Source of the DNA: Escherichia phage NHEP1
Sequence record: PQ511146.1
Strand: one strand, 5' to 3'
DNA length: 64,000 bases
Shown: positions 17,060-18,549 of the stretch, one piece after another
Layout of the letters: each line of letters opens with the position of its first letter
Numbering within the stretch: position 1 is the stretch's first letter
Notes under the pieces: generated by a model
Told to the model about the DNA's origin: nothing
The model's input: only the letters and a program-made list of their open reading frames with translations
The model's database searches: none
Position numbers and translations under genes: made by a program

Positions 17060-17821
17060 ATGCGACGACTGATCATTATCTCCGGTGCTGGTTTGAGCGC
17101 TGAATCTGGTATCCCCACTTTCCGATCTGGTGGCACTGCAATGTGGGAGAATTTCAGCATCGATGAGGTGTGTAACATCCACACCTTTGCCAAGAACTAC
17201 TATAAGGTGCATGACTTTTACAATGCACGGCGTGTAGCTCTGGGCAGTGTTGATCCTAACCTTGCACATCTCCGGATCGCTGAGTGGTATTCACGCTGGT
17301 CTGGTCGTGTGATCAACCTGACAACCAATGTAGATGATTTGCTGGAGCGTGCTGGTGTAAAACATGAAGATATTTTACATGTCCACGGATATTTGCCAGA
17401 AATAGTCTACGAGGATGATGAAGGGAGTGACGTCATTAAAGACATTGGATACTCTGAGGTAGACGCAAGCAAGTATACTTGGGTTAAGCCTAATGTAGTG
17501 TTTTTCGGAGAAGTAGCTCCAAAGTATACAGACATGTATGACCTGTTGACTTCTCTGACGAGCAATGATATGGTTATCCTTGTAGGGTGCTCCAACACAG
17601 TTATCAATTTTAACTGGGAGCTATTTCCTGCCTGTAATAAGGGAACCAAACTGCTGATCGTCAACAAATACGACTCACAGCATTTAGGGGAGAATGGCAT
17701 TTCACGTAGTGACATTTACCAGTATGAGGATCGCGGCATCCCAGTTTGGTTTAACGGGGCGGTTGACGCTTTCTCTGATAAAACATTTATTGACATCGTA
17801 GAAAACTTTATGGAACTGTAA
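17060..17821 (+). CDS. Sir2-family (sirtuin-like) NAD-dependent protein
   Basis: N-terminal GAGLSAESGIPTFR (sirtuin Rossmann signature), TTNVDDL (TQNID-like), HVHG motif; GAGGA RBS. Confidence 0.75.
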   Translation: MRRLIIISGAGLSAESGIPTFRSGGTAMWENFSIDEVCNIHTFAKNYYKVHDFYNARRVALGSVDPNLAHLRIAEWYSRWSGRVINLTTNVDDLLERAGVKHEDILHVHGYLPEIVYEDDEGSDVIKDIGYSEVDASKYTWVKPNVVFFGEVAPKYTDMYDLLTSLTSNDMVILVGCSNTVINFNWELFPACNKGTKLLIVNKYDSQHLGENGISRSDIYQYEDRGIPVWFNGAVDAFSDKTFIDIVENFMEL

Positions 17822-17835
17822 GCGGAGGCCTTTTA

Positions 17836-18549
17836 ATGCTGAATACTAAACTGATCGACAACCTGGAAAAACTGTCTCAACCTGAAAACTACCTTTGGTC
17901 TGCCAACTGGGTGGAAAATTGGAACCGTGTAGCAGCTAAAGTGAAAAAATCATACACACCATTCGAACTCCAGCTTAGTTTCATTGAGGAAGAGTTTAAT
18001 GAAGTTTTGGAAGAGTTGGAGAAAGGTGATGGTGGAGATCATCTCCTAAAAGAGGCCTGCGATCTTCACGTTGTCACAAGTTATGCCGCTTATCTTGTTA
18101 ACGATAACCATGAAAAGTGGTCAAACCTGTTTGATAACCCGCGAGGTCTTAAGTTTAAGATCGGTGAATTTTATGATACACTGATCGCTGCGAAAAATAC
18201 CTCTAAGCAAAGAGCGTCTGCTTACCGCTTAGCAGAGCTGTCAACGGCTTTACTGTTCCAGCTTCGCGGTGATGTGTGCTGGATGATGCGGAAGGTTCTA
18301 AAATCTAATGACAGCAAGTTTGCACGTGTCAACCATCTGCGGCATTCACACGGTGCCAGTGCAGATATGCCTGCTGAACAACTCATCGAGCTGGAGATTA
18401 AAGATCTTGAGCGACGCTTTGATGGTCGCTATGAAGGTTTTGTTGCTAAAGAAGAATTCTACAACGGAAATAAAGTTATCATATTCCTCGACAGTAAAGG
18501 TAAGATTATGAAGCCTTCAAGCTTCAAGGATGTAACAGAATATATTTAA
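17836..18549 (+). CDS. MazG-like NTP pyrophosphohydrolase candidate
   Basis: 237 aa; EEEFNEVLEELEKGD...EACDLHVV resembles the MazG EExxE...ExxD metal-binding pattern; weak assignment. Confidence 0.35.
   Translation: MLNTKLIDNLEKLSQPENYLWSANWVENWNRVAAKVKKSYTPFELQLSFIEEEFNEVLEELEKGDGGDHLLKEACDLHVVTSYAAYLVNDNHEKWSNLFDNPRGLKFKIGEFYDTLIAAKNTSKQRASAYRLAELSTALLFQLRGDVCWMMRKVLKSNDSKFARVNHLRHSHGASADMPAEQLIELEIKDLERRFDGRYEGFVAKEEFYNGNKVIIFLDSKGKIMKPSSFKDVTEYI

Follow-up and report, generated by a model that had tools for sequence, protein, structure and literature searches.

Escherichia phage NHEP1 (sequence record PQ511146.1), in the window of 64,000 nucleotides analysed here, carries a sirtuin gene (17060..17821, plus strand; 253 aa) whose product we place, from its sequence features, in the Sir2 family, as a zinc-free offshoot of class III (CobB/SIRT5-like) carried by phages. 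The protein is predicted to be catalytically competent and NAD+-consuming, and its gene stands among genes for an RNA ligase and other putative RNA-repair enzymes; the reading that we favour, tentatively, is that it may act in the manner of Tpt1/KptA on RNA 2′-phosphate within an RNA healing-and-sealing set. In rV5-type E. coli phages the gene has long been annotated as Sir2-like; it is present in the annotation of over 100 near-identical genomes of Vequintavirus and of about 1,000 phage genomes overall, and in the near-identical records it is labelled ‘Sir2-like protein’, ‘NAD-dependent protein deacetylase of SIR2 family’ or ‘sirtuin domain NAD-dependent deacetylase’. Over a 5.5-kb stretch around it, 20 phage genomes show 95-99% identity and a further 102 show 90-95%; Escherichia phages B9-1, ECP32 and FV3 are among those at 95-99%, and FV3 and RudolfGeigy are classified in Vequintavirus, subfamily Vequintavirinae. 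Iyer, Burroughs, Anantharaman and Aravind (2022, Viruses 14:1977, section 3.7.3; PMC9503650) have described a ‘distinct clade of phage sirtuins’ with three neighbourhood types, the second of which, with Escherichia phage V5 and Proteus phage Mydo as prototypes, was predicted to be an NAD+-dependent RNA-repair system; in V5 the sirtuin is accompanied by a tRNA ligase of the T4-like kind, a cREC (cyclic-phosphate-processing receiver-like) protein, a nucleotide kinase, MazG and a calcineurin-like phosphoesterase. The cluster in the window is this published V5-type system, and nothing material differs. Because the gene has been annotated and its neighbourhood interpreted in print, the finding is already known; our checks of single residues and of synteny lend some weight to the view that a role on RNA is not obligatory.

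The assignment to the Sir2 family rests on Pfam, PHROG, alignment and an AlphaFold model. The signature from which the original prediction had named a Sir2-family protein, GAGLSAESGIPTFR (residues 9-22, nt 17084-17125, plus strand), is accompanied by a match to Pfam SIR2 (PF02146; E=1.3e-26, 94.1 bits against a cutoff of 24) that covers model positions 1-178 of 180, and by one to PHROG 2162 ‘Sir2’ (E=8.6e-109), so the family match lies far beyond chance. The open reading frame (ORF) begins with ATG and has GAGGA upstream. When the protein is aligned to CobB, SIRT5 and Sir2Tm, all of the NAD-binding and catalytic elements are found (G9-A-G11-x-S13, S16-G17, F21-R22, N90, D92, H109-G110, F149-G-E151, G176-x-S178 and N202), T89-N90-x-D92 being encoded at 17324-17335 and the catalytic H109 at 17384-17386, both on the plus strand. 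The YxxR pair that serves class III in the binding of acidic acyl groups is also there, with Y54 (17219-17221, plus strand) and R57 (17228-17230, plus strand) in the places of Y102 and R105 of SIRT5. These functional residues, Y54 and R57 included, are invariant in 67 of the 67 phage homologues examined. An alignment of the catalytic His and Asn had been put forward with the original prediction as a way to overturn it; H109 and N90 are both present, and on that count it survives.

Much of this evidence would also suit an ordinary NAD+-dependent lysine deacylase of the CobB/SIRT5 type, probably one preferring acidic acyl groups (succinyl, malonyl), an explanation that we consider possible but doubtful. 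Such an enzyme would target proteins of the host or of the phage: it might, for instance, switch acylated enzymes such as the ligases next door back on, or redirect the metabolism of the host. That its gene stands in a repair cluster would then be a matter of co-expression or of chance synteny, with no chemistry in common. The best matches in sequence and in structure are all deacylases: E. coli CobB (E=3e-21) and SIRT5 among PDB sequences, and, for the AlphaFold model (predicted local distance difference test, pLDDT, 90.3), CobB as the best Foldseek match (E ~1e-18, template-modelling score 0.76/0.84), then Sir2Af and SIRT5. The top NCBIfam match is likewise ‘NAD-dependent protein deacylase’, and no member of the close phage clade departs from the carboxylate-binding Y..R pair. 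In addition, the positions that line the acyl-lysine tunnel and bind peptide in SIRT5 (V221, F223, G224, E225 and V254), including the FGE residues, are kept in the zinc-free phage clade and in zinc-containing relatives alike, which argues for an unchanged acyl-lysine substrate and so weighs against RNA. What speaks against the deacylase is that the protein falls far under the NCBIfam CobB equivalog cutoffs (NF040867, 101.9 bits against 320; NF001753, 120.8 against 243), that neither an acyltransferase partner nor an obvious target is encoded close by, and that two derived features mark the phage clade.

The first of these features is the loss of the Cys4 zinc module: the 40-residue segment between H109-G110 and G150 holds no Cys, and the corresponding segment holds 0-1 in 65 of 67 homologues (CobB 4, Sir2Tm 4, SIRT5 5). 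The segment itself is retained across the clade as 36-54 Cys-free residues predicted to form beta-strands. The second is the replacement of the Gln of TQNID by Thr (TTNVDD). Among the best 150 representatives of 50%-identity clusters drawn from a library of 1.8 billion proteins, 50 have at most one Cys in the zinc segment, 34 of them with Thr at the TQNID Gln position, and 95 have at least three Cys, 79 of them with Gln. In a rough neighbour-joining tree that excluded the zinc segment, and that is indicative only since it has no bootstraps, the NHEP1 protein groups with zinc-free sequences for the most part (39 of the 49 representatives in its group), and this group nests within zinc-containing, YxxR-bearing sirtuins; this nesting again favours a deacylase. 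Class III-type features combined with derived changes and sub-cutoff CobB scores are the reason why we file the protein as a derived class III offshoot and not as a CobB orthologue.

The gene lies third in a row of four on the plus strand. The first encodes an Rnl1-type (T4 RnlA-like) RNA ligase (15769..16704; 311 aa) that matches PF09511, RNA_lig_T4_1, at E=1.6e-14 (54.8 bits, cutoff 28.3) and does not reach the NCBIfam T4 RnlA equivalog (35.9 against 242). The second, whose start overlaps the ligase stop (ATGA), encodes the cREC protein (16701..17051; 116 aa; PF20274, E=3.9e-14, 53.5 bits against a cutoff of 27), which keeps the motifs LDDxRD, DxDLG and VH(T/S)SNP, DDxRD and DxDLG being invariant in 10 homologues. 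The fourth begins 14 nt past the sirtuin gene with its own GGAGG and specifies a putative, distant MazG/PRA-PH-type protein of the all-alpha NTP pyrophosphohydrolase superfamily (17836..18549; 237 aa). The row is bracketed by two plus-strand sites, each a consensus match only: a sigma-70-like promoter match (15729..15757; TTGACA-17-CAGAAT with TG) in a 100-bp divergent intergenic region, and a terminator-like GC-rich hairpin directly after the MazG-like stop (18556..18574; 8-bp stem with 6 GC pairs, T-rich tail). Tight packing on one strand between such sites makes a single transcription unit plausible, and the operon shared with the RNA ligase that the original prediction had assumed is upheld to this extent, as an apparent one from which we infer co-transcription. 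Divergently on the minus strand lie genes for a P-loop AAA_33/polynucleotide-kinase-like protein (15258..15668; 136 aa) and a calcineurin-like metallophosphoesterase (14696..15250; 184 aa; motifs DxH, GD, GNHD and GHxH). The mechanically called kinase ORF has a TTG start, reaches 15824 and would overlap the start of the RNA ligase; homologous annotations and a GGAGAG upstream indicate that the true start is the ATG at 15668, which leaves the 100-bp divergent promoter region free.

For this cluster we infer the following scheme, from its RNA substrate to each enzymatic step. Rnl1, cREC, the MazG-like protein and the sirtuin would be co-transcribed as an RNA healing-and-sealing set, with the 5′-kinase and the metallophosphoesterase divergent next door, and would presumably mend tRNAs cleaved by host anticodon nucleases. 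The sirtuin would move ADP-ribose from NAD+ onto an RNA 2′-phosphate with release of nicotinamide; the ribose 2″-OH, activated via H109, would then attack the phosphorus to give RNA 2′-OH and ADP-ribose 1″,2″-cyclic phosphate, and the latter could be degraded by cREC together with the phosphoesterase and the MazG-like enzyme. In chemical terms, the normal two-step reaction of sirtuins runs parallel to that of Tpt1. In its fullest form the proposal holds the sirtuin to be a non-homologous replacement of Tpt1/KptA that strips 2′-phosphates from repaired tRNA and so counters host anticodon nucleases, with cREC and the MazG-like enzyme clearing the by-product; we would put this forward only with some hesitation, as a doubtful possibility. 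KptA/Tpt1-like removal of RNA 2′-phosphate by the sirtuin was proposed by Iyer et al. as a computational prediction, as was the idea that the neighbours make the 2′-phosphate or break down ADP-ribose cyclic phosphate (PMC9503650), and the activity of cREC is itself a prediction from the same laboratory (PMC7824862). The counter-defence role suggested in the original prediction is thus plausible by way of RNA repair and has a precedent in print; its analogy to ThsA/DSR effectors was wrong, as discussed below.

What argues for a role in RNA repair is the company that the gene keeps. Sirtuin relatives were found by tblastn in 1,012 phage records, in Vequintavirus, T5-like Demerecviridae, Mydovirus-like Klebsiella phages, phAPEC8-like phages, KVP40-like Vibrio phages and jumbo phages, and 68 loci were surveyed with profiles made from the genes of the window and with Pfam scans. 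Vequintavirus has the order Rnl1-cREC-Sir2-MazG-like with kinase and phosphoesterase divergent; the Mydovirus-like phages have the same set reshuffled (phosphoesterase-Rnl1-cREC-kinase-Sir2-DNA ligase...MazG-like), and an Erwinia-phage type has it without cREC. In 29 T5-like loci the order is Sir2-HAD_SAK_2-DUF7415-DUF7415, HAD_SAK_2 being an RNA-repair HAD phosphatase, and in the jumbo phage PBECO4 it is Sir2-Nudix (Nudt16-like)-cREC. Sirtuins of the phage families that share repair neighbours are only ~45-60% identical, so that their repeated placement beside RNA-end-processing phosphoesterases, in at least three arrangements, counts against a plain deacylase. In each of three independent arrangements, the partners that recur are phosphoesterases or pyrophosphatases without exception, and RNA ends or ADP-ribose cyclic phosphate would fit them as substrates better than O-acyl-ADP-ribose would. 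The phage tRNA genes nearby count for RNA repair as well, and so do the promoter-like and terminator-like sites on either side of the four-gene row.

Several points weigh against it. No sirtuin is known to act on a nucleic acid, and E. coli itself has KptA; moreover, the metallophosphoesterase could remove 2′/3′-phosphates without NAD. The searchable literature yielded no experimental study of a phage sirtuin or of cREC. The isoelectric point of the protein is 4.84 (clade median 5.16), which is unusual for an RNA-binding enzyme, though the CobB core is also acidic, and charge was for this reason dropped as a means of telling an RNA from a protein substrate. Linkage to the repair module is not obligatory: about 20 of the 68 loci, the phAPEC8-like ones among them, have no recognisable RNA-repair partner, and in about a dozen no recognisable genes surround the sirtuin at all. 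In Justusliebigvirus PD06 the block cREC-phosphoesterase-Rnl1-kinase-DNA ligase-MazG-like is intact and the sirtuin lies ~31 kb off in the same genome, and Pakpunavirus JG004 has phosphoesterase-Rnl1-kinase with no sirtuin nearby. The uncoupling in Justusliebigvirus and the many lineages without recognisable repair partners count in favour of a deacylase. Host-genus distributions of the two families are also largely different, with the sirtuin in 289 Salmonella phage records against 14 for this Rnl1 family, and with 177 Rnl1 records from Pseudomonas phages, a group outside the ten commonest genera for the sirtuin; the T5-like phages of Salmonella for the most part carry the sirtuin and lack this ligase.

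The PD06 arrangement also bears on the MazG-like gene. As the module is intact there without an adjoining sirtuin, this gene goes with the ligase module rather than with the sirtuin, and in other lineages, too, it travels with that module. Adjacency of Sir2 and MazG, which had been read as a functional hint, is therefore present in the window but specific to the Vequintavirus gene order. In the record of Escherichia phage PD06 (module, L075 2571-8131; sirtuin, locus L039) the phosphoesterase is labelled ‘MutT/nudix’.

A third explanation leaves RNA out and makes the protein an NAD+ glycohydrolase, or else an enzyme that forms or breaks down small molecules derived from ADP-ribose; it would lower host NAD+ or make or intercept ADP-ribose signals while cREC, the MazG-like enzyme and Nudix proteins process the products. 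We consider it unlikely. The intact NAD-binding and catalytic residues would allow it, and the partners cREC, Nudix and MazG-like are predicted processors of ADP-ribose derivatives; defence-type Sir2 domains are NADases (PMC9503650, PMC7824862). Yet the substrate-tunnel residues that are kept would be needless for a plain NADase, and the protein is unrelated to the defence Sir2 NADase families: no PADLOC family matched it at E<=0.01, and it has no sensor domain. A defence-type (ThsA/DSR-like) Sir2 is ruled out by the lack of a PADLOC match, the canonical PF02146 match and the closest structures being CobB, Sir2Af and SIRT5, and the analogy to defence effectors drawn in the original prediction has to be given up on the same grounds, which leaves that interpretation as a whole partly supported. 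A T5-like BASEL phage carries the NAD+-restoring pathway NARP3, in a paper that mentions only the host Sir2-HerA (PMC13464706). With T5-like phages carrying the sirtuin and a T5-like phage carrying NARP3, NAD+ depletion would be self-defeating where the two occur in one genome. In one fully annotated Vequintavirus relative, no NAD-synthesis genes are annotated that might offset such a drain.

Least probable, and in our judgement improbable by a wide measure, is a protein ADP-ribosyltransferase of the SirTM type that modifies a host or phage protein. Some sirtuins do ADP-ribosylate proteins, and the characterised ADP-ribosylating class M sirtuins, which have a macrodomain partner, carry Gln in place of the catalytic His and lose activity when the His is restored (PMC4518038). 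The NAD-binding residues of the phage protein are intact, a point for such an activity; H109, however, is invariant in 67 homologues, whereas class M swaps this His for Gln, which disfavours protein ADP-ribosylation, and no macrodomain was seen among the neighbours in the Pfam scan of the window or in the surveyed loci.

The product of the gene downstream of the sirtuin is, from its sequence, probably MazG-like at the superfamily level only, and the original prediction of a MazG-type neighbour holds in that sense: PHROG 671 ‘nucleotide pyrophosphohydrolase’ matches the ORF at E=1e-20, but with Pfam the window protein does not reach the threshold (PRA-PH, E=0.083; 13.7 bits, where 21.3 would be needed). 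Among members of its family, PRA-PH matches 17 of 17 (best 4.8e-6) and MazG 15 of 17 (best 5.9e-5). An acidic motif, EEEFNEVLEE...EACD, has E51-E52-E53, E56, E59 and D76 invariant and E73 nearly so, and these residues (EEExxE..E...ExxD) all lie on predicted helices. For the structure, only a mediocre model was obtained (pLDDT 71). At E<=0.001 it had no Foldseek match, and the sole meaningful fold matches, all weak, were dimeric dUTPases (E 0.4-1, with probabilities of 0.96 at most), which are members of the all-alpha superfamily of MazG. A profile search of PDB sequences gave no match. The C-terminal extension (residues ~160-237; 18310-18549) is conserved, with a predicted helix and beta-hairpin and an invariant motif, GKIMKPSSF, and matched no known family.

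Further observations concern sirtuin loci in other phages. In phAPEC8-like phages the genes upstream of the sirtuin belong to phrog_8514 and phrog_9509, to which no function is assigned. The first, a conserved protein of ~204 aa, precedes the sirtuin in phAPEC8-like and related phages (L003 3796-5013; L037 7237-7878; L049 7062-7736; L059 7035-7736); its identification as a 2H phosphoesterase was dropped because the His motifs are not conserved. The second (184 aa) precedes the sirtuin in some phages and is called ‘putative aminoacyl-tRNA synthetase’ in one record, a label with no support from Pfam or PDB sequences. Both may be alternative sirtuin partners. At the loci without RNA-repair genes the only partners are phrog_8514, phrog_9509, DUF7415 or unrelated genes (endonuclease VII, arginase, deoxyribosyltransferase). 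The T5-like loci (phage Bf23, L002 5993-7332, and 28 more) have, after HAD_SAK_2, two tandem paralogues with two DUF7415 repeats each. In Pseudomonas phage JG004 (L074 2460-8160), ribose-phosphate pyrophosphokinase-like and nicotinamide phosphoribosyltransferase-like genes directly follow phosphoesterase-Rnl1-kinase, so that RNA-repair and NAD-rebuilding genes adjoin in this lineage. About 20 records labelled ‘Campylobacter phage’ (18-25 by query; e.g. MG065654.1, MG065674.1) carry the sirtuin region; their products are 92-97% identical to E. coli Vequintavirus proteins, and the host labels look doubtful.

Within the window, an ATP-dependent DNA ligase gene (19178..20461, plus strand) follows the cluster and is a recurring companion of these genes in other lineages of phages. 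The phage tRNA genes (Pro, Met/Ile-CAU, Thr, Arg-UCU and others) form a cluster on the minus strand (10818..11756), at a distance of ~4 kb from the repair genes. For three of its members the calls of ARAGORN and Rfam differ: a 99-nt gene with a 4-base anticodon called by ARAGORN at 11062-11160 (minus) scores only 35.5 bits with Rfam, a tRNA-Ser called by ARAGORN at 11259-11349 (minus) is absent from the Rfam calls, and an Rfam tRNA at 11467-11551 (minus) is absent from the ARAGORN calls. Around the disputed genes, relatives are annotated with tRNA-Lys (97 nt) and tRNA-Tyr. The sign of the GC skew switches at ~15-16 kb and ~52 kb, the first switch coinciding with the divergent promoter region between kinase and ligase.

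If the Tpt1-like reading is true, this would be the first sirtuin shown to act on a nucleic acid, and the recruitment of sirtuin chemistry to RNA repair would give the family a new class of substrate and phages a new counter-defence step. In the other case, the gene of these large lytic phages is for a zinc-free protein deacylase and nothing more.

Set beside known systems, the phage protein shares with the defence Sir2 NADases (ThsA, DSR1/2, Sir2-HerA, SPARSA) the superfamily and the NAD+ substrate; unlike them, it is a single-domain protein of 253 aa without a sensor or partner domain and is encoded by the phage, not the host. To KptA/Tpt1 the likeness would be one of proposed role: dependence on NAD+, release of nicotinamide, two steps via attack by the ribose 2″-OH, and occurrence in phage RNA-repair contexts. 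KptA belongs to the ADP-ribosyltransferase (ART) superfamily and has no relation in sequence or fold to the phage sirtuin, for which PTS_2-RNA/ART homology was sought and not found, SIR2 being its sole Pfam match and its fold search having returned sirtuins only. KptA occurs in 98 phage records, mostly of jumbo Erwinia, Dickeya and Klebsiella phages, against ~1,000 for the sirtuin, and in three KptA phage neighbourhoods that were inspected almost no genes were recognised by Pfam or local searches. The closest relatives remain CobB and SIRT5 (PDB 1S5P, 6RXQ, 3RIY), which have the same fold at 26-30% sequence identity and have in common with the phage sirtuin the GAGxSxxSGIPxFR loop, YxxR, the Asn/Asp pair, His-Gly, the FGE loop, GxS and the tunnel residues. 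Unlike them, the phage sirtuin has a Cys-free segment of similar length in place of the zinc cysteines, TTNVDD for TQNID and a C-terminal extension of ~50 aa, and it is encoded by phages among genes of RNA repair.

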